64,000 nt of DNA from Leptogorgia sarmentosa. Its lineage: Eukaryota. Below the pieces are notes generated by a model. The model ran no database searches, was not told the origin of the DNA, and saw only the letters and a list, made by a program, of their open reading frames with translations. Location: positions 21,824,001-21,888,000 of the forward strand of contig OZ210885.1 in assembly GCA_964658305.1 (NCBI GenBank), in the 5' to 3' direction. Positions 12,981 through 64,000 of this stretch are shown here, piece after piece; positions within the stretch are counted from its first letter, which is position 1; every line of letters begins with the position of its first letter. A program made the translations under genes and the position numbers.

Positions 12981-15099
12981 TTCGTAGGCTTATTGAAATT
13001 TACATGGCTTTTTAATTAACTTTAGAAATTTAAACGGAGTCTTTGTAAAACAATTAAGTCACTAAAAAATAACACTTTTGGACCACGGTCAAGATTTTGT
13101 AAAAAGCCACCCACTGCTGCAGGCAATCAGATTGCAGAAAATCAAAAAATATCACTAGGCATGCACAAATAAAAAAATTAATATATATATTTTTCCCTCT
13201 TAACTGTTTTTTTTGCAAAGCGCATGTTCATAACTTCTTTCCTGATTAATAGGTATTCACAAAAAACAAAAACGCAGTAATGCATACACTATTACTTTGG
13301 CAAAACTGATCAAAAACATGCTTAAGTGCAAGGGGGATCCGAGTGAAGGATGCAGAAGACCAGATGGCTGCTTTTAGGCAACATCAGTGTTGATGTCTAG
13401 TTTGAAGGCTAGGCTATCAAACTCTGGCCCATGAAATTCAACTAATCATCTGCGCAGCCAAAGTACCCTGCCACTATCTGCAGCTGCAGAACAAAGGAGA
13501 CTATTTAACTTTGGTAACAGGGTTTCATCAACAAGCATGTCCGGGAAGCAAAAAGCAGCTAAGAGGCGAAGATTACAAACGTGCACATTAAAATTTTGCT
13601 GCCTAACCTCAAAAGATGCAGACAGACCACCCAGTAGTGTGAAAGAAAGAACAGAATTGTTAAATGCAGGGCTTGGAGATTGCAATATCTCCTTTCCTCA
13701 GAATGGTGTCCCAGTGTATGATACACTAACTGAGAAATTTCCACAACTGAATGAAGCTGGAGGCTTTGATATGCTGTTGTACCAGAGGGGTGGTGGTGAA
13801 GACAGTGGCTTCCATATCATCAAACCTCCACACACCCCAAGTCACCTAAAGAACCTATGTGGTCAGGCAAAAATATATATAAGGCCAGTCCAGCAAGATT
13901 TGAAATTAAATGTGGAAGCTGCTACTCTGCTGCCAATGAAGGTATAGTCTATAATGTTTTGTAACTAAAGCATTTGTCATGTATAGCATATAGTAGTCAT
14001 CCAACAGCATAGGAGTAGCGGGCAATCACTCAAAGGTTATGGGAGGTGTAACAGTGTCACTTATTATGAAGTACAAATTGTTAGTGCGATACAGTACTGT
14101 GTATTCCTGATGTACATGCTTAGTAACCACTAGCTTTGTATTGGCAATTAGTTGGAACTTGGTGAGTAACAAGTGTACATAATCTGTTTGCTTGTCTACT
14201 ATGTACATGTGTGGGTGTTGGCATGTGGCAACTGATTTACTTAGTTAATTCAACTTTTTTCATGTTACAAACATACTTGACCCTTCACTCCTGCCCATAA
14301 AGCCGTTGTAAATGAACTGTTCCTTTGCAATGTTACTGATTATAACATATCTGTTCACTAGACTAACAGTTGGTGTTGCAATGATGAAGATGCGTCAGCA
14401 CCATCAGGAGAATCATGTGCAATCTGATTCAGATGAAAAACCAGAGAAGGTAAGTACATTTTGCATTTCACAGCTGCGGATTTATCAGTTGAACTAGTGC
14501 ATTAATAAGGTCAACAACTTTGCATGCTGTCTGCTACATGGTATCTATAATTATCAATTGCAACCCCCCCTAACTAATTGTGTAATTAGTAATTTACACT
14601 GATAGTATGACCTACCCTTGCTTTACTGCCAATTGTTAATTTTTTACAAAGACAAACAACACTTGAAGAAATAATAAATGACAGGTACTGCATATTAAAT
14701 ATTCATGAAGAAAACACAATGAAAATCATGGCAGTGTTAGTGGTGTTGTATGTGACAAAATTTCATGTTAATTTACACAACTTTAGCTTTCTTAGATTAA
14801 ACAATATTGATTTAAGATTACTTCGCCAATGAACTCATAAACATGGGTCATTTTTAAGCCATTTAAAGCTCTTGTAGTTATGATTTATTAGTTATAAAAC
14901 ATTTGGGTTGTGCCTCATGTTTTATATGTGATAAAGCTCTGCTTGTGTGCTTTAAATATATAACACAAATACATGTAATTACACATATTAAGGGCTGGCC
15001 TGATAAGCAGAGGCATTGTTCCTCCCACCAAGAGGAGGCACCCACCATGTTGTTTACATTTTAGACAATGAATATTTTGATTCCATGATATTTTGTTTT

Positions 15100-15485
15100 A
15101 ATGGACCAATTGCATAATGGACAAAATTTTTAAAAAGTTCGAAATAGTACAATTCATAACAATAGCGTGAAAGGGCATCCCAAAGTTAGTAAAATGGCAA
15201 AGTTTGGGTCGAAATGTTGTAAAATCTAACCGTGCGAAATTGGCAAATTTGTATACTTTTGTATTACGTGCGTGAATTGCTAACTAAATTAGTTACTTCA
15301 TTTCGCACGTAATACGAAAGTATACAAATTTGCCAATTTCGCACAGTTATATTTTCCGTATTTTACAACATTTCGCACCCAAACTTTGCCATTTTACTAA
15401 CTTTGGGATGCTCTTTCACGCTATTGTTATGAATTGTACTATTTCGAACTTTTTAAAATTTTGTCTATTATGCAATTGGTCCATT
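15100..15485. mobile_element. Palindromic foldback MITE in an intron
   Basis: AATGGACCAATTGCATAAT...ATTATGCAATTGGTCCATT; the two arms are near-complementary over most of the length. Confidence 0.85.
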
Positions 15486-16065
15486 GAATTATTAATTTAC
15501 CTTTCTTGTTACAATTTTTTGATCATGGGGACTTGTACCTGGACTGGTTTTAAGTAAAGCATGTTGGTTTTAAGTAAAGCACCTTGTCTTCTTTTTTGTT
15601 TGCATTCACTCAAATATTTCACAAGATGGGCAAAGTGATACTAACGGCCAAGAATCAAGTAGCATAAGCATTTTGAGGGAGCTTTGCCCTGATGCAAGTA
15701 TCGCAGACATCACCCATGCAATATCTGTCTCAAATGGAAGTGTTGATGTGGCTGCTCAACAGCTGTTGACAGGTACTGTGTAAAATGAGGACTATGGTGT
15801 CCGTGGAGAGACATCAAGATTTTTAACTTATTTTTGCATTAATTTGCATGCAATTTACATTTAATTTAATTTGTTTTTAAATTATATCTTAATGTTTTTC
15901 TTTTTCGTTCTTGATTATTTTAAAAACAATTCAATTCAATTGGTTTCATTTCAAAATTTTAATATGAAAATAACCTTGTCCGAGAAGAGACAAGACATTC
16001 ATTAACGAGTGTAACCGCTGACCATTGCATGTGCATTGGGGGTTCATGTTCATCTACCATTCAAA

Positions 16066-17277
16066 ATGGCCTCCCAAGCAAACGAATGGAAGAACGACGA
16101 GGACTTGAGATTTGAACTGGAAGCCTTAGTGAAGAAAGCATACAAGAGGAGTGAAATTATTACTGTTATGAGGAAAGAGTTCCCACAGTATGCATGGGGC
16201 TGTATAAAAACACTTGATCGTCGACTGCACCATTTCAACATCAAGTATATAGATTACAACACTCCTTTGCAAGATGTGAAAGACGCAGTTCAAAAAGAGC
16301 TTGAAGGACCTGGTAAACTTCTTGGGGTACGAGCAATGACAAAGAAGCTTCGAATGGTCCACAATATCAAAGTGCCTCGTGATTTGATAAACAATGTGAT
16401 GTTTGAATATGACCCAGATGGTTTGGCAGAGAGGCAGCCGTGCAATAAAGACAAACGAAAGAAAGGAAACTTTGTCACTCAGGGTGTTAACTGGGTTTGG
16501 AGTTTGGATGGGCATGACAAATTAATGGGGTTTCAGAACTCAACATTCCCCATTGCATTGTATGGTTGTTATGATACGGGATCCAGAAAAGTATTGTATT
16601 TAAAGGTCTGGACATCCAATTCAAGGCCTGAACTAACTGCTAGATGGTACTTTGATTATATTTTTGAAGCAAGGAAAATTTCAAGCATGCTGCGACTGGA
16701 CAAAGGTACAGAAACAGGACTCTTAGCTAGTATACATGCATTTCTACGTAAGGAGCATGGAGATATGGCCCCTGAAGACACTGTCCATTTTGGTAGTTCC
16801 ACCTCCAACAAAATTGAACGATTCTGGAAAGAAATACATGAACGCATGGAGAAGTTTTTCAAGCGTCAGCTGCTGGAATTGTTGGAAAGAGGACATTACA
16901 ATCCTGAAGATGAGGATGATAGAAATATGTTGTCTTTCATATACATACCTATTGTCCAAAGAGAAGTAAATGTTTTCATACAGTTGTGGAATAACTCAAG
17001 AACCAGACTTCAGAAAAAGACATTAATGCCTGATGGTATTCCAAATTATATATACAGCAATCCAGAAGAATATGGCTTAGTTGATAAGGGCTGGGAAGTG
17101 TCTCTAGATGACCTGCAAGCAGCTGCTAAGGTTTCAGGGGTTTTAGCAGTTGAGCAAGACTACATACCAGCGAATTTTTCAAGACGATGCCATGATGTTG
17201 TGCCAGAGCCTGAGAAGATACCATCAAAGGATGCTGCAAGGTTTTATTTGATGTTGCGTAGAGAAGTAAGGCAGTAG
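16066..17277 (+). CDS. Integrase-core DDE transposase (IS3EU-like), intact, 403 aa from first ATG
   Basis: N-terminal HTH-like region (KTLDRRL); WSLDGHDKL (D), YGCYDTGSR, LRLDKGTE (D), SNKIERFW (E), LWNN. No stops. ATG in caaaATGg context. Confidence 0.9.
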   Translation: MASQANEWKNDEDLRFELEALVKKAYKRSEIITVMRKEFPQYAWGCIKTLDRRLHHFNIKYIDYNTPLQDVKDAVQKELEGPGKLLGVRAMTKKLRMVHNIKVPRDLINNVMFEYDPDGLAERQPCNKDKRKKGNFVTQGVNWVWSLDGHDKLMGFQNSTFPIALYGCYDTGSRKVLYLKVWTSNSRPELTARWYFDYIFEARKISSMLRLDKGTETGLLASIHAFLRKEHGDMAPEDTVHFGSSTSNKIERFWKEIHERMEKFFKRQLLELLERGHYNPEDEDDRNMLSFIYIPIVQREVNVFIQLWNNSRTRLQKKTLMPDGIPNYIYSNPEEYGLVDKGWEVSLDDLQAAAKVSGVLAVEQDYIPANFSRRCHDVVPEPEKIPSKDAARFYLMLRREVRQ

Positions 17278-17555
17278 GTTAGCACTGTATGGTAACTGGG
17301 TAATCAATACCCTTCATTAACTGACAGATTCAGGTTGTTTATATTGTGTTTTTTTTTCTGAAGTGTAAAACTTTCTAATTATCAAAAACTACAAAAAAGA
17401 AAGTATTCACAATAACATAAAACTCATTTGCTGCAATATATACATAACTTGCAGTTCATAACTTATAACTCTTTACAGATAATATATTGTTTGAACATGA
17501 ATAAGAATATGAATAAGAAAGTTAGTTTCTAAAACATTTGATATGAACTAGATAC

Positions 17556-18908
17556 CTATTTTTTGGAAGAAATGTGATACTTAGGATCATCCTCTTTTAA
17601 TCCTAACATGTTGCAATAAATGCTGCACTCATGGATTTCAAAAAATGTTTCTATAGCATCAGTAGAAAGGTTACCGATGCAGAAATTCAACTGGTTGGCA
17701 CTTGTTAATACTTTGCTTGCTACTTCAGGATCATATAATTGATAACCTGTTCCTTGAATGTCAACAAGTAAACATTCACCTTGGCTTACTTGATAGGAAT
17801 AATGCATCAATGTTTCTGCTTTCTTCGTGATGGTGTCATTACTGCTTTCACTTGTTGCACAAGTGTTGCCAGTATTATTGACATACTTGGTGAAGCTGCC
17901 CTCCAGATACCTCTCAATTGTAACAAATGATGCATCATCATCATTATCATTTTTTATTTTCCCAAAAAGCATGCTATCATAAGAAAATGTCTCACCAAAA
18001 GTTTCTGGAACATTTCTTTGCATCTGAATAGCAATGTTTTGGGCCAATGTATGCATCTGGACCTGTTTTCTAGCATGCTCTTCTTCTGTAAGATTGAGAA
18101 GCTTCATGTCTTCCAAGGCTTTTTCTTTATACTTCTTTAATACCCACTTACCAGACAATTTCCCATCAATACTTTCACACTTGTAAGCCTTTCTGAAGCC
18201 CCCTTCAGCAAAACTCTCACTCTCCACTGCAAATGTCATAGTTTTTGCTACAGTCCATCCATCTTTGATATCAAAGCCTTCAATCTCTACTTGCACTGTA
18301 TCACGTTTCACAGGCTTAATTAGCTTTCCCATTTTTAACATTGTTGCCACTGACAAAGAAGAAGGAAAGGATTTATGTAGTTTTGAATCACTGGACTTCA
18401 TTGGTTCAGAGGCTCTCTGTTCGGTATGGTTAGACTTGGTACGTTTTTTAGGTGGGGGTTTGTAACTAAATGGCACTGATTTTTCATCATTTTCGTCTGA
18501 GTCACCAAAAGCTTCATCAACAGTATATTGCTTGTGGATGAATCGTACGAAAATTGTGCCATTTAAATTCTTGATTTTGTTCAGATTTTCGATAGATGGT
18601 CCTCGCTCAGTCTCCAGTATATCACAATCAAAATCTTTCATGTTAAAACCAGCAATGCATGCCCTTCTCACAACATCAATAGTTGCTGGTGCACACATGT
18701 CTTCTTCCAAAACATCCACTCTTTTCAATGGCCCCATTCGTGCATACTTTTGTGAAGATCCTTTAACTTGAGCTGATAATCGCTGAATGGTTAATTTTTT
18801 GGGTAAGAGCCGGTCTTTACCCTTCCCAAGTTTATTTTTGTCCGTTTTTCTTGTTCGTTTTGCTGCCATAATCTTCTGGTACTTTTTGAACTCGTCTTCG
18901 TCCGCCAT
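17556..18908 (-). CDS. Alpha-kinase (eEF2K/MHCK/TRPM-type atypical kinase domain), intact, intronless, 450 aa
   Basis: FAEGGFRKAYK, WVLKKY, Q-x-x-x-x-A-Q, IERYLEGSFTKYVNNTG, HYSY, LLVDIQG, LYDPEV, GNL, FF..HEC..YC..LGL (Zn ligands). Confidence 0.93.
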   Translation of the reverse strand: MADEDEFKKYQKIMAAKRTRKTDKNKLGKGKDRLLPKKLTIQRLSAQVKGSSQKYARMGPLKRVDVLEEDMCAPATIDVVRRACIAGFNMKDFDCDILETERGPSIENLNKIKNLNGTIFVRFIHKQYTVDEAFGDSDENDEKSVPFSYKPPPKKRTKSNHTEQRASEPMKSSDSKLHKSFPSSLSVATMLKMGKLIKPVKRDTVQVEIEGFDIKDGWTVAKTMTFAVESESFAEGGFRKAYKCESIDGKLSGKWVLKKYKEKALEDMKLLNLTEEEHARKQVQMHTLAQNIAIQMQRNVPETFGETFSYDSMLFGKIKNDNDDDASFVTIERYLEGSFTKYVNNTGNTCATSESSNDTITKKAETLMHYSYQVSQGECLLVDIQGTGYQLYDPEVASKVLTSANQLNFCIGNLSTDAIETFFEIHECSIYCNMLGLKEDDPKYHISSKK

Positions 18909-19845
18909 GTTTCAGGCTTTCAGCTTAATGCCGCCCTCGAGATGCAATGGTCAGCGGTTACACTCGTTAATGAATGTCTTGTCTCTTCTCGGACATAAGG
19001 TTATTTTCATATTAAAATTTTGAAATGAAACCGATTGAATTGAATTGTTTTTAAAATAATCAAGAACGAAAAAGAAAAACATTAAGATATAATTTAAAAA
19101 CAAGTTAAATTAAATTTAAATTGCATGCAAATTAATGCAAAAATGAGTTAAAAATCTTGATGTCTCTCCACTGACACCATAGAGGACTGTGTACTACATT
19201 ATTCTTAAACAACATGAGTGTAGGGTGACCCAAATTACAAAAACAACATGGTAAACAAACTCAACATGGTATTATGTACATGTCAGGAACCTAAAGCTAA
19301 TATGTTTATAAAGCAATTTTATTTTTAGACGAAGTTCAAACCATAAATGTTGTTGCAGACCGTGATGATGATTCACCACTGCCTTTTGCATTTGATTATG
19401 ACGATGCATATGATGCTTCCTCTCCATCAAGTGCCTTGAAACAGTTCCAGCAGAACAACGTTGATGAAGACAGCGCTGCCCAATGTATATCTGTGAGCAG
19501 AATGGAGTCGCTCAGTTCAGAAGAGACATACTCGGAATTTACAAGAACAAAAAAACAAAACTTAGAGTCAAACCAAAAATACATTTTGAGGAGGAAGGTG
19601 CTGTCGGTAATGGTCCTGTGCGAGAGTTCCTTGCCAATGCTGTCAAGACCATTGAACAGGGGATACCTTCTACATCATCCAAACCACTGCTTTTTTTAGA
19701 AGGCGAAAAAGATCATCTTCTTCCTATACATGACCAATCTCTTTGCTTAACTGGGACATTCAAGGCTCTTGGTTCAGACGGTCAAGCTGATCGGTCATGA
19801 ATTTTGGAGCTCCCTCAATTATATTATATTCCTAATAGCTTAATT

Positions 19846-20703
19846 ATGGCTACAAAGAAATTAAGAGAAGAAAACGATCTTTTACGATCGGAGATCAAAG
19901 AGTTAAAGAACCAACTATACAAGATAAATGAAGATTTAAAAACACAACAAACTACTGCAGCATCAAAGCCAGACAGAACCGCTGAAGCAAAACAGGCAAA
20001 AGATACGATCAAACGAACGAACTCTGAGGAACGAGCAGAGGCTGTTGTTTTTATGAGCAAACAATATGATGATCTAGAAGTATTCCGTAAGCAAGCGACG
20101 CAAGATATTCAACAGATCACAAAAAAATTGGATTCAATCAGTAAAAATTGCAATGAGATTACTGAGGTCATCGAAGCGACTGAACAATATAGCCACCAAT
20201 ACAACATTAAGATCATGGGCGTACCGCTATTAAACAAGAAAGAATCGGCAGAAACTACAACGAATCTGTGTATTAAGCTGTTTACGGCTATGGGCGTAAC
20301 TGATGTATCCTTACAGGATATAGACATTGCACATCGCGTACAATCTAGAAGACCTTCACAAAATTCCAGCCCAATTATATGTAAATTTGTCCGTCAACTT
20401 GCTAAAGAAAGGATTATGTCGGCTCGGAAACATGCATTAGATAATATCACGCCTGAACAGCTTGGTATTGAAATAGCCTATCCCTCAACTACACGAATTA
20501 GCATGTTTGACCATTTGACACCACGTCTACAAAGCCTTCTGTATGAAACAAAAAGGTATAAAACGAGCAAGGGTTATAAGTTCTGCTGGGCAAGAAATAG
20601 TCAAATTTATTTAAGAAAATCTGATGACACTGGAGTAATCCGTCACTGGAGTCATCAAGACAATCTTGACAATATCTCAGCTAAGTACTTTATTTTTCTT
20701 TGA
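19846..20703 (+). CDS. LINE ORF1 (coiled coil, RRM-like region, C-terminal domain)
   Basis: Heptad-rich N-terminus; EQYS..YNIKIMGVP, IDIAHRV, PIICKF, DHLTP, FCWARNSQIYLRK. Directly upstream of the APE domain. Confidence 0.85.
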   Translation: MATKKLREENDLLRSEIKELKNQLYKINEDLKTQQTTAASKPDRTAEAKQAKDTIKRTNSEERAEAVVFMSKQYDDLEVFRKQATQDIQQITKKLDSISKNCNEITEVIEATEQYSHQYNIKIMGVPLLNKKESAETTTNLCIKLFTAMGVTDVSLQDIDIAHRVQSRRPSQNSSPIICKFVRQLAKERIMSARKHALDNITPEQLGIEIAYPSTTRISMFDHLTPRLQSLLYETKRYKTSKGYKFCWARNSQIYLRKSDDTGVIRHWSHQDNLDNISAKYFIFL

Positions 20704-21182
20704 ATTTTAAATGAGTAGATCAGAAATCCATATTAATAGATCTATCCTGGCTCAATTACCTTTCTATGGTGTATATAGTGATGATGTTTTTATCGATCAC
20801 TGTACCAGCGAAAGATATTGGAACAAACTTACTAGTCTATATAATCTAGATGTATTCAATCTTAATATTGAAACAGACGCTGATATTAATACGGATCGAA
20901 ATGCAATGAGCAACCATATTAAATGTAAATATTATTCTCCAGAAAGCTTTACTAAAATTGAAAAGGATTCATACGGCTCAAGTGATAGCCGTTTCTCTTT
21001 TTTTCACAATAATGTATGTAGTCTATGCAGAAACTTAGATCATTTACAAACTCAAATATTGGATGAGCTTGATTTTTCATTTAGTGTAATAGGCATCACA
21101 GAAACGCGTATCAAACAAAACAATTGTAATGATTTCAACTATAATATTACTGGGTATCCATTTGAATTTGTACCAACACCTC

Positions 21183-21631
21183 TTATTATACATTTAAAAT
21201 TTATTCTCGTTCCTGATTGGTCAGAAAGCACCGGCTAATTGTCAGTATTCGGTATTTATTACGTATTTTCCGCCGATGACGTCATCAGCGTCCAATAATT
21301 ATTTTTTTGGATCGAACTTGCATCCAAAAAAAAAATTATTGGACTCTCTCGTGCCCAAGCCCTAGCGCTGTCAAAAGCTTGAAGCTAAAAGCGCGCGAAA
21401 AAACAAACAAACAAACAATGGCCTGTAGCAGATTTGCTTCGCTGAATGAAAGTGAACTCTCTTTTAAATGTATAATAAAACAATTATTGGATTCGGCTTT
21501 CGCATGATATCAAGAATTATTCAGACCTCGGTCAATGTTATCCGCCTCAGCTTCGCTTCGGCAGATAACATTGACCCCGGTCTGAATAATTCTTGATATC
21601 ATGCTCAGCCTCATCCAATAATTGTTTATTA
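21183..21631. mobile_element. Non-autonomous Crypton-like insertion in the LINE APE domain
   Basis: Splits FVPTPL / TAGGVGMY. TTATTA at both junctions. ~155-bp imperfect palindrome at ~21475-21630. Confidence 0.6.
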
Positions 21632-24538
21632 CTGCTGGAGGCGTTGGAATGTATATATAAAATAATCGATTTAATTATGTGGTCATTGAAAAGGCAATTA
21701 ACATAGCTTATCAAGCACTTTGGATTGAAATTGATATTCCAAAGAAAAGAAATATCATATGCTCAGTTATATATAGGCAGCATAATTTGCCTGAGGCGTT
21801 TCAAACATACTTTGAACAAAAATTAGAATATTATACCTCAAAAGGCAAGCATGTTGTTATCATGGGTGACTTTAACATAGATCTTTTAAAAATTGACCAA
21901 TGCAACTACGCACATAATTTCATGTTATCTTTACAAAGTTGCTCAGTGATCCCTAGCATTGATAAACCTACACGTGTCCACAGAAACTCATCCACGCTAA
22001 TTGATAACATATTTATTAATAACCCTGATAATATATTAGTTAGTGGAAATATAATATCTGATGTGAGTGACCACTTTTCACAATTTTGTATTTTAGATTC
22101 TTTAGCTAGCGTTAGACAGAATATTTTTAAACACAAATATCGTGACTACTCACAATTTTCCGAAACTTTGTTTAATAATGAGCTCTTAGAAATAGACTGG
22201 GAGTCGATTTTAATGAATTCATCAGATAACCCAAACAAGGCATTTTCGACTTTCTTTAATAAATTAAACAAAACTCTAAATAAACATGCACCGCTTAAAA
22301 CTATTTCAAAACGTAAATTGAAGCAATCAACCAAACCATGGATAACGAAAGGGATAAGACGATCAATAAGATTAAGAATAAGTTATTTCACTCTAATAAT
22401 AACACGAAATACAAGTTATATCGTAACTATCTTGTAACTTTAATTCGATCAAGTAAAAAGTTGTATTACTGTGATTATTTTAACTCATATTATAATAACA
22501 TGAGTAAAAAGTGGGAAGGAATAAGGGAAATATTAGGGCGCAATAGCAAAATTAAAAACAATATCAATGCTGTTCGACAAGATTCAAATGCCCAATTAAC
22601 ATTTGATCCCACAAAGATATCAAACATAATAAACCATCATTTCGCTTCTTGTGGCCAATGTCTAGCTGCAAAAATACCTCATTCTGAAAAACATTATTCA
22701 ACATATCTTCCTGACCTAAGCATGTATAATTCCGCAAATGCTTCCCAACAACAAGGGTCTTTTGCTTTTATCCCAGTTACAGCTCGAGATATTGAACTTG
22801 AAATTATAACATTACCTGCCAAAAAGGCTGAAGGCCTGTATTCGTGCCCTTATCGAATCTTAAAAAGTGCCCAACACGTTATAAGCAAGCCTTTAGCAGA
22901 TATCTTTAATTGCTCCATTGAAACTGGAATTTATCCCAGCAAACTTAAAATCGCAAAAATTATACCAATCTACAAATATGATGACGAAACTGACCCAAAT
23001 AATTATCGCCCAATATCTCTCCTATCCTCATTCAATAAAATTTGAGAAAATTATGTATAAACGCTTACAAAGTTATCTAGCTAAGAAAGAATTTTTCTGT
23101 GATTCACAATATGGTTTTCGTAAACAACATTCAACCCAACATGCTATTCTTGATATTATTAACAAAATTCAAGATAATATGGAGGAAAAAATGTACTCCT
23201 GTGGTATATTTATTGACCTAAAAAAGGCATTTGACACGGTTGATCATGATATTCTGTTGGGTAAGGTAGATTATTATGGTATCAGAGGAGTAATCAATAA
23301 CTGGTTTTCTTCTTATCTTAAAAATCGCACGCAAACTACTTCAGTCGGAAATTGTGTATCTAACAAAGAAACTACCTTGTGTGGAGTACCCCATAGCTCA
23401 GTTCTTGGACCTCTACTCTTTTTGATCTACATCAATGATATTTGTAAGTCATCTGAGATTTTCAAATTCTTTCTTTTTGCTGACGATACTAACTTATTGT
23501 ATGCCGATAAAGACCTAAAAATGCTTGAAACAGTTGTCAACACTGAATTAAAGAAAGTCTGTGAATGGCTTGCAATAAACAAACTCACCCTTAATATAAG
23601 CAAATCAAATTTTGTAATTTTTCGACCATATCAGAAGTCATTGAATTTTCATCCAGTAATTAAAATGTTTGATAATGATGCCAAACAATATACACCACTT
23701 GAATGCAAAGAATATGTTAAGTACCTTGGAATTATTATTGACTGTAACTTGAACTGGAAGCATCACATAAATTATATTACATTAAAGATTAGTAAAATTG
23801 TAGGAATCATTTCTAAATTGAGATATTATATTCCAAGTCATACCTACATATTTATAAGTCATTGATTTCACCATATTTAACATATGGTGTTGTTGCTTGG
23901 GGAAATGCTGCTAAAGTTCATATTCAAAAACTTCTTGTTTTACAAAAGCGTGCATTACGACTCATGAATTTTAAATCATTTCAAGATCACGCAATTCCTT
24001 TATTCCTTTCTACCTACATTCTTCCTGTAACTATGATCTATGTTAAGGAATCTGCTTGCATGCTATACGATATATTAAAAGGGGATGCGCCTGAAGCACT
24101 GCGTAAATTATTTACCAAAACGTCTGATTATCATAATTATGATACGAGAATGGTTTCAAATGATAACTTATATATCAATTCTTCTCGTCTGGAATTACAA
24201 AAGCGTTCATTTTCTAGAGTCGGTACTTTAATTTGGAATAGCATTGATCTCAATCTTTGCTCATCCCATAAACAGACTTTTAAATCTAAAATACATCAAG
24301 CTCTTTTAACCATACTTCAAAATCAAAATGACTATGTTGACGTACCCATGATAATTAAAATGCTGCCTAATGTAACCGCGATATAATTTTCAACTCATTA
24401 TAACTTTCTAATTACTCTCAAAAAGAATATATTTGTGTCATGAAAAATATTTTTTATTAAAAATTATCATAGCCAATTGGAATTTAAACTCTCACTCTGT
24501 AAATAATTTATTTTACTCCTTCTCAATATAAATCAGTT

Positions 24539-24574
<36 letters not shown>
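24539..24574. repeat. (TA)n microsatellite
   Basis: tatatatata run at the LINE / HECT-B junction. Confidence 0.9.
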
Positions 24575-24612
24575 AAAGAATACTTTTTACATAATAAATA
24601 TTCTTTTACTAG

Positions 24613-30297: not shown

Positions 30298-30440
30298 TGT
30301 AACCTATATCACGAGCTGCATTGCCATTTGTGATCTATATCACGCGTTGTGATCTATATCACGAGTTGTAATGTATATCACGCGTTGTGATCTGTATCAC
30401 GAGTTGTAATGTATATCACGCGTTGTAATGTATATCACAC
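30298..30440. repeat. 19-bp subterminal tandem repeat (TGTGATCTATATCACGCGT-like)
   Basis: About 6-7 copies of the tatatcacg core, upstream of transposase B. Confidence 0.85.
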
Positions 30441-31032
30441 GCTTTCAAGATTTATATATTTGGAAGAGTAACCTATTTGTCACGAGTTATACTGTATATA
30501 TTTGCAGTAATATATATCACACAAGTATGATCTATTTTGTCATATTTGGCACCTCATACATACAGTGTGGTTTCCAATATTTGATACATTGCTGCTTAGT
30601 ACCAGTGTGCATACCAAAGGTTTACGATTGTGTTTGACCCTCCAGTGTGGCAACACAACTATACTGTACAGTATTGCATTGGGGTATATGGATGAATTTT
30701 TTTGTGATTTTTACAAGAAATTGATGAAATTACAAGTTTGTGAAATGATTGGAATTTATAAACTAATGACAGTTATTGAACTTCTGTAATTGTGTCTGTA
30801 ATTATGTATAATTGTGCTGCCAAATGTAACAAGTATGACATGTCAATTTCTTTCGACACAACACAAGGGCTGTCATACTCAGTTTTTAACCATTATTGAC
30901 ATTTTAAATGCTGCTACACATTTACTCTGACTCCAGAGTATTTTTCATGATTGTGAACAGGAACTCGGGTAAATTTGCATGGTTATGGCCCTGTATAAAG
31001 CCATCTTTTTATTCATTTTTTTTCTGCATTAG

Positions 31033-52715: not shown

Positions 52716-52739
52716 TACATATACATATATATATATATA

Positions 52740-53360: not shown

Positions 53361-56204
53361 GAAGGTGTCCAGTCAACTCGGCCCACGTATAAGTCAATCG
53401 GCCCAGTACGTTAACCAACTCGGCCCATGGTTGGATAAAGAAAAACAACCATTATATATTTATATTACATAAATAGGAATCCAACATGAAAATACTAACA
53501 GAATTGAGTGTTTGGATTGCTTTTGTGGGAAATTGTATTCGTAATATGTGTAATCTAAAAGTGATCGCTAATTGAATCGCTAAGTCAGAGATAAACACGG
53601 TGATTAATTTTTACAACGGATGAATGAAACAATTCCCAGAACGGTGATTAATTTCTGACACTAGAGAATGAAACAATACACAGCTTACAAGGTTTCAAAT
53701 TTAGTTATTCAAGTTTTTATAAATAGAAAAATGACTCAATCCCAGAATTACTCATCCTTCACATGTGTATGTAATGATTTAGAGTCAGACAAATTAATAC
53801 AATTTAATAAAATTTGCTTCAATTCACCTGAATCCACAAAGCATAAAGCGACAATACATGTAAAGTTGGCCACCAAGCCTTTCCTTATGCATAAGGCTAA
53901 GTGAAATAATCTATTTTGTGATATTCACCTAATTTACTATATTTTGATTTGTTGATTTATATCAATGCAAACCACTTCAAACGCATTTGGAGTGTTTTTT
54001 AATGATTTTTTACTGTTTTTTAGTGTTTTAAAAATTAAAACAATTCAATCAAGGTTGCATGTTGTACTATACTGCTGTATATACGTATGTGGTTATATGT
54101 ATATTAACCTCGCTATTAACTATAGTTTTAGTGGTGTCTGTTGGGTTATTTGTCATTAACTATATTATTTCGTACCAAGATTAGTCAAACTACAGGACGG
54201 AAAATTTCATCAATATATCATTGTTAACAATAGCCATCACATTAATCACTTTTTTACAATAGACAATGGTTCCCAAAAATGCATGCAATGTTACAAAAGC
54301 CATTTGTCTGTTCATATGTAAATTTGTATTTGTTTTTCTGCAATCCTTTCACTTTATTAGTCCTAGCTGTTTTTTTAAAAAAACATAAAACCATACTCAT
54401 AATACTCAAAACCATATTACCTACACAAATTTTTTGAAAATATATAGTTCTACTGATTCGGAGGTTTTATGTACACAAAACAGCTATATAGGTAACATTT
54501 ACTATATATGTATAAGGTAAGGTAAGTTTGTTCTTTTACTGTGATATTGTAGCAGTCTTGAATACATGTTTTTGTCTAATTATAATTTTGTCTTTGACTA
54601 TAAATATTGATTTTCATTGCTGCAATTTATTTCCGCATCGGTCATTCTTCTATTGCATTTTGTTCCTTAACCATTTGTTCCGGTGCTATTTTTTCCTGAA
54701 TTCACGACCATGATTCACCTCAAAAAAATTTTAATGACCTATATCAATGTTGCCATTCTTGAATTTTCACTTCCTATTTATAGGAAACAAATTCAAAAGA
54801 CTATTGTCTATTGAATATGCACCAAAAAGATAAACACGTTCTTCCTATGCATCATTAAATACTAAATAGCTTGGTAGAAGCATATAAAATACGTGCATGA
54901 AAAAAAAACATTCACTCACTGGCAGCCGCTGCTATAGAGAACAAAGCTGTAGAACCGTCAATTTTGGTTTGCGATCACCGTTTTTTTATAATGTCTGCGC
55001 AAGATCAATGTATTCGCTGTAAGGAACCTGTGAGAGCTCGGCAGGAAGGTTTGCTGTGCGATGGATGCGAGAGATGGCAGCACAGAACCTGTGGTAGTGG
55101 GATCACGCGAGATGATTATCACACATCGGTAAAATGTGGCCGAGACATTGATTGGCGCTGCAAGGACTGCAAAAATATGAGCGCAGGATTCCTCGTACCA
55201 ATTAGGTGAGTATAGTTTCATTCCACATTACATTGCATACAGCTAATCGTATTTGACTGTTAGGTATTAAACAGGTGTTCTAGGTACATAAGGCATAGGT
55301 ACAGCAGCAAAGGTAAAAAAAAACATGTTCTTGTTTCGAATGTAATATCAATTAACAAGTCATATATTCTGTACTGTATAGATAAATAATAAATGTTGTC
55401 GTTTTTGTTAACCATTTTGGTAGATTATCAGCGAAGTGAAGGCGAAGGCAATGCAAGACTACTTTCGATCTGCAGGGGCTATTGCTGATGAAGTGTTAGT
55501 TGCGCGTTTAACCGATGCCCCATGTGCTGCCGTTCTAAAAGCCTGCAATCTTGCTAGACAAGGAAACAGGAAACGACAAAAGACCAGACCTCAAGATCCG
55601 ACTGATTTGGAGTTCGAGGTAGATGAACGTCATATACCAGACAATTTTCTTCAAGCGGATGTGAAGATCCGAGATCGACGCCATCTTGTATTCGGCACTC
55701 CAGAAATTATTTCTCTCCTTAAGAAAGCAAAAGTGTGGTATATGGATGCCACTTTCAAAGTTGTTAAAGCTCCTTTTAAACAACTCTTCTCTATTCATGC
55801 TTTTGTGAGACAAAACAACGATGTTAAGCAGGTAGGATTTTTTAAATAGTTTCGATTAAAGTGCTACTAGCATCAAAATTCATTTTCATGTGTGCAATAT
55901 TTGGGATATTCTAGGTAGAAATTAAAATATCTTTATAAAGAAAAACGTCTTCTTCATCAACTTGTCCGTCTTATAAATATTTTTACCAATTGCAACCCCA
56001 TCTTTCGTGTTTTTTTTAACAGGTACCTTAAGCATTTGCCTTGATGTCTGGCAAGAGCAGACATGATTATCGTGCTGTATTGCAGGCAATTGAAAACCTG
56101 CTTGCAGATAGCATGTGCTTGAATAGCTATGGCAAGCCGTTTGTAGCAATATTCAACCAGTTATATATTTTGTTATTCAACCCACATTTCAACCTTCATC
56201 GACG

Positions 56205-56430
56205 AGCATTCAACCAAAATTATCGAGCATTCAACCAAAAAATTCGACATTCAACAAAAATATTCAACGTTCAACAAAAATATTCAACGTTCAACAAAAA
56301 TATTCAACGTTCAACAAAAATATTCAACGTTCAACAAAAATATTCAACGTTCAACTACTTCAACAAAAATATTCAACGTTCAACTACTTCAACAAAAAAT
56401 TAAACATTCAACAAAAAAATAATTCAACCA
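56205..56430. repeat. 20-bp subterminal tandem array (TTCAACAAAAATATTCAACG)n, left
   Basis: Direct head-to-tail copies with no unique spacers. Confidence 0.95.
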
Positions 56431-56589
56431 ATTAATTAAAAACTGTCACGCATCGCACTCACACTCCTCCCCAGGCCGCTATTTTTAAGAGCATTTTAAA
56501 CCCATGTTTAAAACCCCACATTTCAAAAGTGGAAGCACTGACTTTGGCGCACTGCGCAAAAATATACAAATTTCTAAGCACATGCGAAA

Positions 56590-59343
56590 ATGGCGGAGGA
56601 TAAGAGCGATCTTCACGAACTCTCACAATGTTTAAGTCAGGCAAGTAGCCTAATCAACGCGATCTTAAAACAACCAGAACGTACACCACAATCAATACAA
56701 AATGAACGAAGGCAGCGAGAATTTGACAATGACACATGCGACATGAATAATGAAGCTCTTAGACATAACGCAGAGAGCGAAAATCGTCCATCTTCTGGCG
56801 AGGCTTCGACCAGTCAGCATGTCAGTGTAGTAAGTTCAGCCGTTAATAGGGCGCGATTGATGATCCAACAATCGTCATGCAAAGGTTTGTATTCGCGATT
56901 AGGAAGAGAACGACTGAGGGCAACAAAGCCGCTTTTAAAGCCAGTAGATAACAAATCAAAGAAGCCTCGTGTTGTAGTTAACGAGAAGCCAAAAGTGTTT
57001 GAGTTCGTACTTCTTCAAACAGAAGAAAGCGACGATAAAGGAGTACTAGTTTTCGAAGAAAACATGGTTGCCCTTCGTGGTTTTATCAACATCACAAAAG
57101 ACGCGAGTGAGAAAGTCATCCGTGGTAAACTTGGAGAGGCAATAAGGATAAAGTTTCCCATGGTGACTGACACGGATTTCGACTTTGTGCGAGCCAATCG
57201 TCGAAGAATCACTAAACCAGTTAGTGTTGGCGAATATAACTTCAATCAAATAAAATTGCTTGCTGGACAAGGCTGCATATACCTAAAGATGAGGGATGGT
57301 CTTGACTGTATGCTGGTGGACGATGCAATCGATGAGGAATTTGATTTTGAGAAGAAAGGTATGCGAGGTTCCAAATAAAGCCCTTTTGTGTACCATACTT
57401 ACGTAATCAGGCATTTAGGTAATAAGTCAATAGTGGAGCTTGTTGTCAGGTGCAATTGTGTGCAACTTAACTGAATAAGTTATTTGAATTTCACATAACA
57501 TTATATTTGCAGCCACAGGAAGCCTAATAGAAGTCCTCAGAATTTTTTTAATTCTGTATGATTTACAGGGGGCGTTAACTCTTCCCCCTCTCCCACCACC
57601 CACTTGGAAGTGCCTATCTGAAGCAATTTCATTCCAGCATTACACATACTGTATGATCATAAGGTACCAGTATCAGTGGTGTAGGAAGATTGATAATTAG
57701 GGGGCCCTGGTCAACCTTTCCAAACTAACATGAAATTTCAGTCATTTTTGTTTACTTTTTTATTGAGCTAAAAAATATTTGATGGTTACAATACTGTATA
57801 TGTAAACAAATAAGATTTATTGGAGTATAATGAACAATTATTTGGTAAGATTGAAGACAATTGAATCCAATTACTGTGACTTACTGGACAATTTTTAATG
57901 TCATTATTGGTAGCATGACATTGGGAATTGTCTGTAAATAATTAACCAAATTGTTTATACTGTTTTGTTATACACCCCAAAAAGGTGGGGCTTAAGCCCA
58001 CCCTATGCAAGTGCTCTACTGCATCTAATTTTCTTTTCCCAAATATATTGACAGAACAAACTGCCAAGATTACCAAAAATGCATCTGATCCTATACACTA
58101 TGATGGTGACCAACAAATAGAAAGTATCTGTGGTATAGCAACTCCACCTACACCATCACATGGACAAACATCTGCATTTTTATCAACACCAGCTATGCTG
58201 CCAGATATTCCTTTCATTACACAAGCACCTGTACCTTCAACTATACTTCCATCTACCCCTCTGACTTCGCTCGCACCTACACCTGCATCTACATCTTCAG
58301 TTACACCTGCAACTACCTCTACATCTACACCTTCAGTTACACCTGCAACTACCCTTAGACATTCAGTTTCTCAAGCCGTAAGTGAATGTATCACATATTG
58401 CAAGGAACAAAACGTTTATGATCCAACTGAAATATTACGTTGTGCCCAGAAATTCCTAGTTAAAGGGAAGCCATTAAATGGTTTTAGAGGCAGGTCTATT
58501 GATGATGAAAGAACAAATTTTATCCTGATTAATCGACAAAATGTTCTTGGTACAGCAATGGAAGAAATACCGTGCATAGAAGATGTTCAGCTGACTCTTG
58601 AGGTGTCTTTCTACGGCGAAAACGCCCAAGATGCTGGTGGTCCTAGAAAAGAGTTCTTCAGGTTGTGCCTTCAAGAAATAAAGAAAACATACTTTGATAA
58701 TGGCCTTAAAGAACATCTATCAGAGGATTACCAAATAATTGGTCTCATCATGGCCCTCAGTGTATTGCAGAATGGCAAAATGCCTAGGTTTCTTGATGAA
58801 GATCAACTTCAAGCAGTTTTGGGCGATGGCAAAACCAGTTCAAAATGCTTGACTAACCTATCACAAGGCCTCAACAAGCTAGGTTTGGGCGAAATTGCTA
58901 AAAATCTACCAATGTTCCTGCATCTTTTCAGACCACCCAGTTGTGGTTTACTTACCAGGAGGAAACTGGTGCATCTCCTCAAACCCGAGTTTTCGGAAGA
59001 TGGATGTAATCAGCGACAGCACGAAAACATAGTCTACACAGCTTTTTCGACATACTGCAGAGAAGCAGCTGGCGGTAAGAGAGGTAATGTTACTCTTGAA
59101 CATATACTGCAATTTACAACTGCGACAGATGAAGAACCTGTACTTGGCTTTGCGGATGAACCATCTATACACTTTGTTCCATCTGCTTCTTCAGCAAAAT
59201 GGTCATTCATACCTACTGCAAACACTTGTGCAAATACACTTTATTTGCCTTGCCCAGGTCATGATGTATCACTTCCAGTTGAAAATATGCTTTTTGAAGT
59301 TTATGACATGGCATTTTCCAATGCTTATTTTGGAAATGCCTGA
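56590..59343 (+). CDS. HECT E3 ubiquitin ligase cargo D (G2E3-like HECT), intact; exons 56590-57358 and 58055-59343, 685 aa
   Basis: Phase-1 GT-AG intron joins in frame (G|AA). Motifs INRQNVL, FYGENAQDAGGPRKEFF, LQFTTATDEEPVLGF, PTANTCANTLYLP (catalytic Cys), YFGNA. Pro/Thr/Ser-rich linker. Confidence 0.88.
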
Positions 59344-59867
59344 ACTATTATTGATTGCACATGGATATACATATTTTGTCCAATTATTGATTGTTATAGA
59401 ACTCTATGGAGGCACTCTTATGTAACAGTAGTTAAACTTGTTATTTAAGTTTTTATGTGGACTCTGAAAACAATCTTAGGCTGTAGTAGCTACCTAGGTG
59501 GTGATTTAAGAAACACTTATTGTTATCTTAATTGTTCAATAGGAATAGGTAATGTTAATATTTTGTTTAAACTGAAGTCAGCGATACCAGAACCACAAGT
59601 GCAGCATGTGTTGCATGTACATGTGCTACCTTTCCTTGCTGCAGTGTGTGCAACAAAAAGAACAAGTTCAAAACAAACATATTACTCCTGTTATAAACCC
59701 ATAAATTAATCATAAATATGAATATTTTTCCAGAATTTAGTATAGGTCGACTCCGGCATCCATGGCTGAAATGTTTCATAATTCCAGGCTAGCATGGACA
59801 TATGTTAGGAATATGGATATGGTAAATGCAGATGTAATTTGAATTTTTTGTGCTTGTTAAAATCATT

Positions 59868-61408
59868 TTAAGTTTGGACAATCATATTTTGCAATAGGTT
59901 TAGAGCTTCTTCATAAATGTCAATTCCCATTTCGTATGAATGTGCTAAAGGGTCTATAGCCTGTAAAACTTCTGACTGTATTTCTTCACCATTTTCTATG
60001 TCTGCAGGATGAACAATAACATTATTGTCACTTTCTTCGAATGGGTTAGGCCCATTTGGATCATACCCATAAAATTCTGCATTATCAGGAAGTGGTTCTG
60101 GTTGTCCAGTTAGCAATGGGTTATTGGGATTTAATATGCCATTTACCCACACTTGGTATGGAGACGAATTTTGTGGTGGTTAAAAGCTTCCATAAACTCC
60201 TGGAGGGCTACATTGATTCTAGGCAGAAAAACCATGTGCAATGCAAACATTTGAAGTGGATTTGTAGTATTGAGGATTCCAGAATCTTCCATTGCATAAA
60301 ATACATAATAGAAGTAGTGGCTAACAACACGAAACACATGCCAAAGTCGTTCAATTCGCTGATTGTGTGTTGATGGCCCGGCAATAAAACTGGCTCTACC
60401 TTCACCTTGTTTCTCAACCATTGCTTCACATACGAGTACATTTTCTACACCTTGATCAACCCGAATACGGGATGGCCATAGTCCTCCATCTTTCTCAATA
60501 GCATCGAGGAACAAGGCTAACACTGTGCTAGAGAGATTGTTTGAGCTACAGTGAAGATAAATTATTCTCCTTGAGAAGCCATCAATGCAGCCATGTATGA
60601 CTAAGCCCCATCTAATTAACGAATGGTGTCCATCAAGATGCCACAGGGAGTTAGGCCATGGAACTTGATACCTTCTTCGATAAACAGCAGCTCCCCATCT
60701 CAATGCGGAATTTGCTGGGTCAATTCTGGCTATACTATCACGAACTCTTGTTCTCTGCACATGTATACCAAGAGAATAAAGATATCCCATTATCAACACC
60801 TGCCCAGTTGTTCTCCCATGACGACTTGCATAATCTCCAATTATTCGATCTAATTCTGCATCGGGTAAATCAGTAAATTCACTTAAATGTTGCAAATTGA
60901 ATTGATGTATTCGTCTGTAAATTGTCCATCTGGACACACCACAAATCTTCGCAATTCTTTCTTTAGAAAAGCCTAAACACAAAAGATCTTCTAACATTTC
61001 AGGTTGTATGTTAAATGCAGGTCTTCCCGGTCTCCCAGTGCTCTCGGCATTGCATTTCTGCGTAGTCAGCGTTGTCGGCCTACGAGCAAGTTCCGACATA
61101 TGTCTATGTAAACTTTGTAATATTAGTTCAAAGCAGCTTTCAACTGTGTGCCATTCTTGCTTGTCAACCTCATCAACCTCTTGGATTATCAATCGCAAAA
61201 GGCTTATGGTTCGATCAAGTACAACCAGACATGTCTGCATTTCATTAATATTTGTACTGCCTGGGCTGATCATACTCTCTGCACGGTCAACAACTGAATT
61301 TAAAAACAAAGGTAATTCTTCTTCGATGTCAAAATTATCAATCTCTACTTCAAAATCTTCATTTTCATGGACAGGCATTTCAATCGGTATTTCAGTCAAA
61401 GCCGCCAT
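59868..61408 (-). pseudogene. IS3EU-like transposase D copy 1, intronless, frameshift near C-terminus
   Basis: GRPAFNI, HTH (IAKICGVSRWTIYRR), [37 protein letters not shown]. Deletion/frameshift between HHKIR and SPYQVWVNG. Confidence 0.92.
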
Positions 61409-61952
61409 ATTTGATGCGTCTGAAAATAGTGACCTGATGGGGAGTAGGGAGGAAAGAGTGAGAATTTTAATTCGTTGAATTTTTTCTGTTGAATATTTTT
61501 GTTGAACATTGAATGTTTTTGTTGAACGTTGAATATTTTTGTTGAACGAAGAAGAAGAATTACCTTTGTAGTAGCTACCTAGGTGGTGATTTAAGAAACA
61601 CTTATTGTTATCTTAATTGTTCAATAGGAATAGGTAATGTTAATATTTTGTTTAAACTGAAGTCAGCGATACCAGAACCACAAGTGCAGCATGTGTTGCA
61701 TGTACATGTGCTACCTTTCCTTGCTGCAGTGTGTGCAACAAAAAGAACAAGTTCAAAACAAACATATTACTCCTGTTATAAACCCATAAATTAATCATAA
61801 ATATGAATATTTTTCCAGAATTTAGTATAGGTCGACTCCGGCATCCATGGCTGAAATGTTTCATAATTCCAGGCTAGCATGGACATATGTTAGGAATATG
61901 GATATGGTAAATGCAGATGTAATTTGAATTTTTTGTGCTTGTTAAAATCATT

Positions 61953-63493
61953 TTAAGTTTGGACAATCATATTTTGCAATAGGTTTAGAGCTTCTTCATA
62001 AATGTCAATTCCCATTTCGTATGAATGTGCTAAAGGGTCTATAGCCTGTAAAACTTCTGACTGTATTTCTTCACCATTTTCTATGTCTGCAGGATGAACA
62101 ATAACATTATTGTCACTTTCTTCGAATGGGTTAGGCCCATTTGGATCATACCCATAAAATTCTGCATTATCAGGAAGTGGTTCTGGTTGTCCAGTTAGCA
62201 ATGGGTTATTGGGATTTAATATGCCATTTACCCACACTTGGTATGGAGACGAATTTTGTGGTGGTTAAAAGCTTCCATAAACTCCTGGAGGGCTACATTG
62301 ATTCTAGGCAGAAAAACCATGTGCAATGCAAACATTTGAAGTGGATTTGTAGTATTGAGGATTCCAGAATCTTCCATTGCATAAAATACATAATAGAAGT
62401 AGTGGCTAACAACACGAAACACATGCCAAAGTCGTTCAATTCGCTGATTGTGTGTTGATGGCCCGGCAATAAAACTGGCTCTACCTTCACCTTGTTTCTC
62501 AACCATTGCTTCACATACGAGTACATTTTCTACACCTTGATCAACCCGAATACGGGATGGCCATAGTCCTCCATCTTTCTCAATAGCATCGAGGAACAAG
62601 GCTAACACTGTGCTAGAGAGATTGTTTGAGCTACAGTAAAGATAAATTATTCTCCTTGAGAAGCCATCAATGCAGCCATGTATGACTAAGCCCCATCTAA
62701 TTAACGAATGGTGTCCATCAAGATGCCACAGGGAGTTAGGCCATGGAACTTGATACCTTCTTCGATAAACAGCAGCTCCCCATCTCAATGCGGAATTTGC
62801 TGGGTCAATTCTGGCTATACTATCACGAACTCTTGTTCTCTGCACATGTATACCAAGAGAATAAAGATATCCCATTATCAACACCTGCCCAGTTGTTCTC
62901 CCATGACGACTTGCATAATCTCCAATTATTCGATCTAATTCTGCATCGGGTAAATCAGTAAATTCACTTAAATGTTGCAAATTGAATTGATGTATTCGTC
63001 TGTAAATTGTCCATCTGGACACACCACAAATCTTCGCAATTCTTTCTTTAGAAAAGCCTAAACACAAAAGATCTTCTAACATTTCAGGTTGTATGTTAAA
63101 TGCAGGTCTTCCCGGTCTCCCAGTGCTCTCGGCATTGCATTTCTGCGTAGTCAGCGTTGTCGGCCTACGAGCAAGTTCCGACATATGTCTATGTAAACTT
63201 TGTAATATTAGTTCAAAGCAGCTTTCAACTGTGTGCCATTCTTGCTTGTCAACCTCATCAACCTCTTGGATTATCAATCGCAAAAGGCTTATGGTTCGAT
63301 CAAGTACAACCAGACATGTCTGCATTTCATTAATATTTGTACTGCCTGGGCTGATCATACTCTCTGCACGGTCAACAACTGAATTTAAAAACAAAGGTAA
63401 TTCTTCTTCGATGTCAAAATTATCAATCTCTACTTCAAAATCTTCATTTTCATGGACAGGCATTTCAATCGGTATTTCAGTCAAAGCCGCCAT
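61953..63493 (-). pseudogene. IS3EU-like transposase D copy 2 (tandem duplicate)
   Basis: Same protein as copy 1 except YLHC>YLYC. Shares the same frameshift. Confidence 0.92.
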
Positions 63494-63559
63494 ATTTGAT
63501 GCGTCTGAAAATAGTGACCTGATGGGGAGTAGGGAGGAAAGAGTGAGAATTTTAATTCG

Positions 63560-63735
63560 TTGAATTTTTTCTGTTGAATATTTTTGTTGAACATTGAATG
63601 TTTTTGTTGAACGTTGAATGTTTTTGTTGAACGTTGAATATTTTTGTTGAACGTTGAATATTTTTGTTGAACGTTGAATATTTTTGTTGAACGTTGAATA
63701 TTTTTGTTGAACGTTGAATTTTTTGGTTGAATGCT
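63560..63735. repeat. 20-bp subterminal tandem array, right (inverted); partial copy at ~61475-61548
   Basis: (CGTTGAATATTTTTGTTGAA)n. Confidence 0.95.
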
Positions 63736-64000
63736 CGTCCATGAAGGTTGAAATGTGGGTTGAATAACAAAATATATAACTGGTTGAATATTGCTACAAA
63801 CGGCTTGCCATAAATAGCCCTTGTCATTGATTTTGAGTGTGCATTATGGCAAGCAGTGGCAAACGTTTTCCCAAATGCATCAATTTAAGGCTGCGTTTTC
63901 CACTGGACTCAAGCAATTTGGCGGAAAGTTCAAGGGTTGGGCTTGTCGACAGCGTACCATGAGGATGATGCAACCCACAAGTACATAAAGCGGTTAACGG

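Follow-up and report, generated by a model that had tools for sequence, protein, structure and literature searches.

The IS3EU/GingerRoot transposons are marked by TA..TA ends and by a target-site duplication (TSD) of 6 bp (PMC10045372), and they have been called poorly characterised elements that encode two proteins (PMC8232023). In the fungal TET+ IS3EU families, the transposase is accompanied by an alpha-kinase in opposite orientation, between TAYGG..CCRTA ends and with a 6-bp TSD (Kojima 2025, PMC12730594); neither the two-gene plan nor the alpha-kinase partner is new to the literature. The Intons are likewise derived from IS3EU and encode conserved extra proteins taken from their hosts (Kapitonov, PMC3520738). 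Here, we describe four elements of this general kind (E1–E4) in a 64,000-nucleotide stretch of Leptogorgia sarmentosa (assembly GCA_964658305.1, contig OZ210885.1, positions 21,824,001 to 21,888,000), hereafter the window, whose positions are counted from its first nucleotide. The transposase of E1 faces an alpha-kinase gene and those of the other three face HECT genes, and the class of the partner tracks the clade of the transposase.

The window elements resemble IS3EU/GingerRoot in their integrase-like DDE transposases and two encoded proteins and, in E1 and E4, in TA..TA ends within terminal inverted repeats (TIRs) and a 6-bp TSD (PMC10045372, PMC6839031, PMC8232023). The Pfam family PF24764, to which the transposases were matched, probably marks IS3EU/GingerRoot, judging by the likeness of its motifs to the published GingerRoot query. 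The difference lies in the second protein, which in animals goes unnamed in the accessible text of these papers; the corresponding parts of the GingerRoot paper mention neither a HECT nor a kinase (PMC6839031). E1 fits the fungal TET+ plan as far as the available sections describe it, whereas no TET/JBP gene occurs here, the host is an animal, three of the four partners are HECT proteins, and other animal-like elements carry conventional kinases in this position (PMC12730594). The Intons differ in being fungal and in encoding five to six proteins, left unnamed in the portion of the report at hand (PMC3520738). A further parallel is offered by the Ulp1 and OTU proteases of Ginger1, Mutator and Helitron, a proposed aid to transposition, which are ubiquitin/SUMO-pathway enzymes retained by DNA transposons (PMC2836005). 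By that paper's available account, however, these enzymes strip ubiquitin or SUMO and are fused to the transposase in Ginger1, whereas the window enzymes would add ubiquitin or phosphate and are encoded by a separate, facing gene. No HECT or conventional-kinase partner of IS3EU was found in the literature searched; Repbase and the Kojima 2019 review lay outside that search and may name one.

Four Transposases and Their Facing Genes

The four integrase-core transposases (PF24764, E values from 5e-19 to 6e-74) start with ATG at 16066 (+), 30166 (-), 42045 (-) and 61408 (-), and the D, D and E residues are invariant in a transposase alignment. The E1 protein shares 21–22% identity with the others, and those of E2, E3 and E4 share 35–39% among themselves. 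The E1 and E4 genes have no introns, that of E2 has one, and that of E3 has several. In all four elements, the end of the transposase gene lies 279–525 nt from the stop codon of a partner on the opposite strand, so that the two genes are tail-to-tail. Pfam identified the partners as an alpha-kinase in E1 (PF02816, E 1.6e-33) and as HECT proteins in E2 (HECT B, PF00632, E 1.5e-6) and E4 (HECT D, E 9.9e-7); the E3 partner (HECT A with its separated C-lobe, A/C) matched PF00632 at E 0.017, under the curated cut-off. The motifs TDTCF, SEACF and ANTCA of the three HECT proteins all fall in the catalytic-cysteine column of the alignment.

A sequence-only reading of the window was right to claim four distinct transposases of differing intron content, each tail-to-tail with one of three HECT genes or an alpha-kinase gene, and a retained cysteine in every C-lobe. 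Its further claim that all visible termini read TATG holds for both ends of E1 and E4, each with a TSD, and is weak for E2 and E3, where one presumed end each is seen. E1 and E4 are the only complete elements of the four, with both ends and a 6-bp TSD. Both genes are open in E1 alone, and HECT D splices to an open frame of 685 codons.

The Alpha-Kinase Element E1

E1 is inserted in an intron of HECT A, and its features are as follows.

15793..19181, + strand: E1, complete IS3EU/GingerRoot element of the kinase lineage, with TATGG..CCATA ends and the TSD GAGGAC
15793-16030 and 18942-19181: TIRs of E1, about 240 bp, 97% identical
16066..17277, + strand: transposase, 403 amino acids, intronless, open; PF24764 E 4.8e-19
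17556..18908, - strand: alpha-kinase, 450 amino acids, open; PF02816

The transposase has its catalytic residues in DGHDKL (D), LDKGTE (D) and IERFW (E), the first of these standing in place of the WHxDGxHKL-type motif by which the earlier reading had proposed to collect the family. In the kinase, a conserved N-terminal alpha/beta domain (residues about 34–128) precedes the kinase domain, where the catalytic Lys, DIQG, DP and the zinc-finger His/Cys residues are kept (K258, D383, D393, H369, H426, C428 and C432). A structure model (predicted local distance difference test score, pLDDT, 83.7) matches the kinase domains of MHCK-A and TRPM7 at Z 25, and relatives of the protein bear names such as TRPM6-like, alpha-protein kinase 2-like and MHCK-D-like. 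The N-terminus of the model has a strand-strand-helix-strand pattern; the fold-search matches were all taken by the kinase domain. A ubiquitin-like header may be common to the kinases and the HECTs; in the HHalign comparison, the kinase headers match neither the HECT A and HECT D headers nor each other.

The HECT Element E4 and Its Mobility

E4 is inserted in a PHD/MULE-like transposase gene, and its TIRs are about 250 bp long and 91% identical.

56128..63812, + strand: E4, complete element of the HECT lineage, with TATGG..CCATA ends, 20-bp subterminal repeats and the TSD AATAGC
56590..59343, + strand: HECT D, 685 amino acids, open; exons 56590-57358 and 58055-59343
59868..61408, - strand: transposase copy 1, intronless; PF24764 E 2.3e-67; frameshift near 60170
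61953..63493, - strand: transposase copy 2, from a 2085-bp tandem duplication

The E4 family is mobile, as is seen in contigs of four DNA runs, all from one study. In two runs, 56127 is joined to 63821 as in an empty site, although these contigs could be another copy of the host MULE. The E4 ends are also joined to at least three other flanks, and runs X6 and X7 contain a deletion derivative that has lost most of both genes, with a breakpoint at 61309. Both transposase copies are frameshifted at the C-terminus, past the catalytic Glu. The two copies of the 2085-bp repeat differ at 15 positions, of which 13 fall in the junction; positions 61791-62741, in the second transposase copy, are uncovered in the four runs, and the duplication may be private or an assembly effect. 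The duplication junction contains a filler (61551-61564) that repeats 61311-61324 in reverse complement; 61309-61324 together with 61551-61564 may be a fragile spot in the transposase gene.

Recurrence of the Transposase–HECT Pairing

Metagenomes were scanned with a transposase alignment, and the best 80 of 569 confirmed stretches were kept; a locus was taken as informative when it had at least 1.5 kb downstream, and near-copies were merged into families at 80% DNA identity. A HECT on the opposite strand and convergent with the transposase was found at 36 of the 46 informative loci, and on the same strand at none. By family, 23 of 31 informative transposase families have the convergent HECT; over all 80 loci, 41 have it, and five have a HECT-like match upstream. 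The count is partly circular because the HECT profiles were grown in part from the same loci. Reversed-sequence decoys gave no HECT matches, and an independent Pfam test gave PF00632 at E < 0.02 in eight of the loci submitted (three over the curated cut-off) and missed L031, L034/L036, L042, L052, L054, L056 and L074. The catalytic cysteine is present in 27 of 28 diverse C-lobes and, within the HECT D family of 44 rows, in every one of the 41 that reach its column. Complete elements with TIRs and a 6-bp TSD occur elsewhere at L075 and L128, with a HECT, and at L059, with a HECT remnant.

The reverse test, which gave a weaker link, started from the HECT side, in animal-like contigs of four prokaryotic metagenome-assembled genomes (G001–G004) that had been picked for one HECT match each. 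There, nine of 27 HECT C-lobes have a convergent transposase within 9 kb, two lie back-to-back with a transposase fragment, two are mixed, and two have too little flank; the other 12 are weighed below. Viral contigs yielded no transposase relative and one weak HECT match. No kinase was found at the 80 metagenome loci, where the search patterns favour the DGxH clade, and an alpha-kinase search of G001–G004 gave no match, its control likewise giving none. In equal-size contigs of at least 4 kb, matches to HECT and transposase coincided five times and matches to kinase and the same transposase never, which is a weak proxy for adjacency.

Two observations were made along the way. Four AT-rich loci (L050, L065, L069 and L070; 22–28% GC) have a HECT-like N-lobe upstream of the transposase, possibly a different arrangement. 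The contigs in G001–G004, which are listed as prokaryotic genomes in GTDB, bear introns, are rich in transposons and reach 2.8 Mb, apparently as contamination from a host.

Two Inherited Lineages

E1-type (DxxDKL) transposases are present in the same animal-like contigs. Two complete elements, L146 and L149, each with TACGG ends and a 6-bp TSD, pair such a transposase with a facing gene for a conventional kinase (PF00069 at E 5.6e-9 and 5.1e-15), and L150 and L126 have a kinase partner likewise, by motif. In a transposase tree of 34 rows, drawn from the fetched loci, with several fragments, five unlabelled rows without identified cargo, and E1 on a long branch, one branch parts the 24 HECT-bearing from the five kinase-bearing transposases (SH-aLRT 100; 0 of 500 shuffles). 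Cargo class tracks the transposase clade: DGxH transposases are paired with HECT, and DxxD transposases with alpha- or conventional kinases. Since the partner follows the clade, the slot is inherited, in two long-lived lineages, and is not freely swapped. The fixed cargo slot that had been proposed from the window does hold a ligase or a kinase, and it is in the implied freedom of exchange that the proposal needs amending. As a side observation, L147:4663-13531 is a complete TACGG element with an inverted duplication, containing two facing transposases and two header-like exon copies.

Across 28 elements of the HECT lineage, the distances between HECTs correlate with those between transposases (Mantel r 0.49, p 0.0005); relatedness alone inflates such a correlation, and the claim made is one of co-inheritance. 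The HECT tree, from which six short rows were omitted, agrees with the transposase tree at shallow nodes. Between E4 and L002, the HECT genes show dN 0.078 and dS 0.547 over 317 codons (dN/dS 0.14) and the transposase genes dN 0.079 and dS 0.389 over 279 codons; in deeper pairs, synonymous sites are saturated, and dN is about 0.4 for HECT and 0.33–0.39 for transposase. Purifying selection acts on the HECT, which is conserved about as strongly as the transposase. The old two-gene unit that had been inferred from the window alone is thereby upheld, through the 23 of 31 families, the complete TIR/TSD elements elsewhere, the selection and the co-divergence.

Architecture of the HECT Proteins

A full-length relative of HECT D, P0009, was modelled with a mean pLDDT of 76.6. 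The model matches bilobed HECT structures (Foldseek E 3e-11; VIA Z 21.7), with profile matches to HECTs in the PDB, and its best structural match is UBR5 (Z 21.7, next 20.1). Residues 107–220 resemble ubiquitin-like domains, among them the TBK1 ULD at Z 7.5, and many other rows score similarly. HECT D itself consists of a ubiquitin-like domain and a compact HECT, in which 197 residues separate the GGP motif from the catalytic cysteine; the median for its family is 196, HECT B has 284, and AREL1 has about 286.

The divergent class IV HECTs include UBR5, G2E3 and GL-Metazoa, and no transposon link is drawn for them in the accessible parts of the survey by Grau-Bove (2013, PMC3673628). The window HECTs resemble this class in their highly divergent HECT domains and in the top match of the P0009 model to UBR5 (PMC3673628), a likeness that comes from structural matching. 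According to the same sections, RING/PHD fingers and a HECT without function mark true G2E3, whereas the window HECTs have a ubiquitin-like N-terminus and keep the cysteine. No Pfam zinc-finger match was found in the window HECTs, and the N-termini of HECT A and HECT D are ubiquitin-like, unlike the fingers of G2E3. Relatives of HECT D occur as many paralogues per named genome, and none of the named ones is called "G2E3-like". Six bivalve or hemichordate relatives (P0050, P0062, P0075, P0086, P0089 and P0115) carry an N-terminal SAM (PF00536) or death-effector (PF01335) domain.

E2, E3 and the Split HECT A Gene

The two remaining elements are nested, E3 being outermost, with E1 and E2 both within its HECT gene (13537-42585). 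A long interspersed nuclear element (LINE) also lies in this gene.

13537..19771, + strand: HECT A, 5' part of the E3 partner gene, frameshifted and cut by the LINE
13537-13941, + strand: HECT A ubiquitin-like exon
15625-15772, + strand: HECT A CUE/UBA-like exon, by eye, without Pfam support
19329-19771, + strand: start of the HECT A N-lobe
24613..27071, + strand: HECT B, the E2 partner, with a UBA-like exon (weak Pfam, E 0.011) and HECT
27517..30166, - strand: E2 transposase, one intron, one in-frame stop; PF24764 E 6.2e-74
30309..30558, - strand: presumed right end of E2, with 19-bp subterminal repeats and the terminus TATGAGG, without partner end or TSD
31033..32049, + strand: HECT A 3' exons (C-lobe), three, open, Cys in SEACF
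32481..42045, - strand: E3 transposase gene with several introns and a frameshift, into which a THAP element and a hAT have inserted
42195..42585, - strand: presumed right end of E3, with subterminal repeats and the terminus TATGACG, without partner end or TSD

HECT A and the C-lobe at 31–32 kb are one gene, because a single relative, P0374, aligns to both in order, at 48% identity with the 5' part, by which it was found, and at 53% with the first 3' exon. The gene is split by E1, the LINE and E2; about 68 codons are absent between its two parts, and the missing segment was not found elsewhere in the window. Its first exon is homologous to the ubiquitin-like header of HECT D (HHalign 92%, E 5e-7) and, in the protein Atlas, matches solely Cnidaria/Porifera clusters. 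HECT B is of canonical length from GGP motif to cysteine, with one premature stop and its 5' end lost. E2 sits inside the HECT A gene and is truncated at the LINE, where it has lost its left end together with the beginning of HECT B. Left ends of E2 and E3 are absent from the window, and their right ends have no match among the fetched loci. The TATG termini of these two elements are weak since they were placed by position beyond the subterminal repeats and TATG occurs 596 times over both strands of the window.

That two IS3EU elements lie inside the HECT gene of a third may reflect targeting or merely a crowded region; the kinase-type elements at L125/L126 likewise adjoin a HECT.

Other Elements of the Window

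The window is an intron-bearing nest of transposable elements with a GC content of 31–42%; corals, octocorals, bivalves and hemichordates supply the named relatives of its genes. Besides IS3EU, it contains the following.

1911-12305: region with fragments of a DIRS-like element (ALOG match at 2641-3057) and with the next two features
3897-7634: retrotransposon fragment, presumably BEL/Pao-like
11555-12305: tyrosine-recombinase (Crypton-like) gene
19772..24600, + strand: LINE with ORF1, endonuclease and reverse transcriptase pieces, which we take to be CR1/L2-like
33491-37421: THAP-domain element with TTAA flanks, inside the E3 transposase gene, presumably Kolobok-like
38186-41473: hAT transposase gene with the 8-bp TSD CCTAAAGT and an open 716-amino-acid frame, interrupting the E3 transposase
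43788-46013: second hAT transposase gene
46265-51961: another two-gene transposon, with G-rich inverted ends and TTA flanks, assumed here to be Zator-like
46582-50010, - strand: open reading frame of 1142 amino acids in that transposon, no Pfam match
50368-51612, + strand: open reading frame with a divergent SAM domain in that transposon

The LINE marks a deletion, in which the rest of the HECT A exon was lost along with the E2 left end and the HECT B start.

Possible Roles of the Partner Enzymes

The reading that we favour, to which we would give about an even chance, is that the element inherits its cargo as an accessory enzyme, predicted to be a HECT ligase or a kinase, and gains from the action of this enzyme on a host protein. 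Each gene would be transcribed inward from its own end of the element, and the cargo protein would locate its target via its N-terminal ubiquitin-like or UBA-like domains. In cells undergoing transposition, it would then ubiquitinate or phosphorylate a host silencing, DNA-damage or innate-immune factor. As the cargo would act in trans, it could also serve deleted copies that lack it. An enzyme of the compact HECT D type would have to take ubiquitin from the conjugating enzyme (the E2 of ubiquitin transfer, not the element) by a non-canonical route. Host-directed enzymes on DNA transposons do have precedent in TET/JBP (PMC12730594) and Ulp1/OTU (PMC2836005), as the available parts of those reports present them.

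Several points weigh against this reading. The present evidence fits a host target and the element's own transposase alike. Ten of the 46 informative loci have no HECT, and L041 is a complete element, with TIRs and a 6-bp TSD, that lacks cargo. At 12 of the 27 related HECTs, the 9 kb downstream is free of transposases, and the stretches fetched around these 12 showed no inverted repeats of IS3EU type. The expectation that such HECT genes lie inside elements is answered by a convergent transposase at nine of 27 and by none near these 12, and the proposed origin of "G2E3-like" expansions draws no support from them or from the names of the HECT D relatives. At L131, one of the nine, a kinase-clade transposase lies 5 kb from the convergent HECT, perhaps as an exception or simply as a neighbour, and at L078 the HECT is apparently off the tree position of its transposase. 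Finally, the N-lobe of HECT D is about 87 residues short compared with AREL1, E6AP and HECT B. From known HECT structure, we take the missing stretch to be the subdomain that binds the conjugating enzyme, and HECT D may be no ordinary ligase because that part may have been removed.

The cargo could instead regulate the element's own machinery, modifying the transposase in order to dismantle the post-integration complex or to limit the transposase level. Strict co-inheritance with one transposase clade would be expected of such an enzyme, as would the similar protein divergence and co-divergence of HECT and transposase, and the ubiquitin-like/UBA-like domains could presumably recruit p97 or the proteasome. 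However, homologous transposases are served by two chemistries (a ligase and two kinds of kinase), and the step is not universal, given that the related Styx/REP9 elements have four genes (PMC8232023) and that GingerRoot appears without kinase or HECT in the text available (PMC6839031); on balance this reading is somewhat unlikely. A benefit to the host, with the enzymes serving for instance as variable genes of immune signalling, the transposon as a mere vehicle and many copies now being host genes, seems improbable. The 12 HECTs without a nearby transposase or inverted repeats would suit it, as would conventional kinases that look IRAK/Pelle-like by eye and the numerous paralogues per named genome, but position and orientation are fixed across deeply divergent elements, and two of the four window cargo genes are already broken, as for dying element copies.

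It is also conceivable, if very improbable, that the cargo works as a poison-antidote or drive gene, to the detriment of gametes or embryos without the element. Its catalytic residues are conserved, and a header-plus-enzyme architecture is common in conflict systems; on the other hand, no antidote gene lies inside the elements, the insertion is polymorphic, and deleted derivatives persist. Least probable of all, and already largely refuted, is the passive capture of host fragments, as in Pack-MULEs and clubmoss GingerRoots. GingerRoot does capture gene fragments, by the available account (PMC6839031), and the cargo genes do have introns. Yet whole genes occupy a single fixed slot at a dN/dS of 0.14, and the co-divergence spans saturated synonymous distances.

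Implications

Few proteins are known by which animal DNA transposons act on their hosts beyond cut-and-paste. An ambitious extension of the accessory-enzyme reading, which we consider unlikely, would make IS3EU a widespread, so far overlooked group of animal transposons armed with effector enzymes, in which a ubiquitin-like targeting domain is coupled to a HECT ligase or a kinase and which disable host silencing or innate-immune proteins, the source of the divergent invertebrate "G2E3-like" HECTs, and the bearer of a compact HECT D without the subdomain that binds the conjugating enzyme. With both genes of E1 open, and HECT D open over 685 amino acids, substrates can be sought. The shortened HECT is of interest to ubiquitin enzymology. 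Moreover, transposons may be the true owners of many invertebrate gene models, from corals and bivalves among others, that are named "uncharacterized HECT", "TRPM6-like" or "alpha-kinase-like", and such mislabelling would affect studies of gene families and of stress responses.

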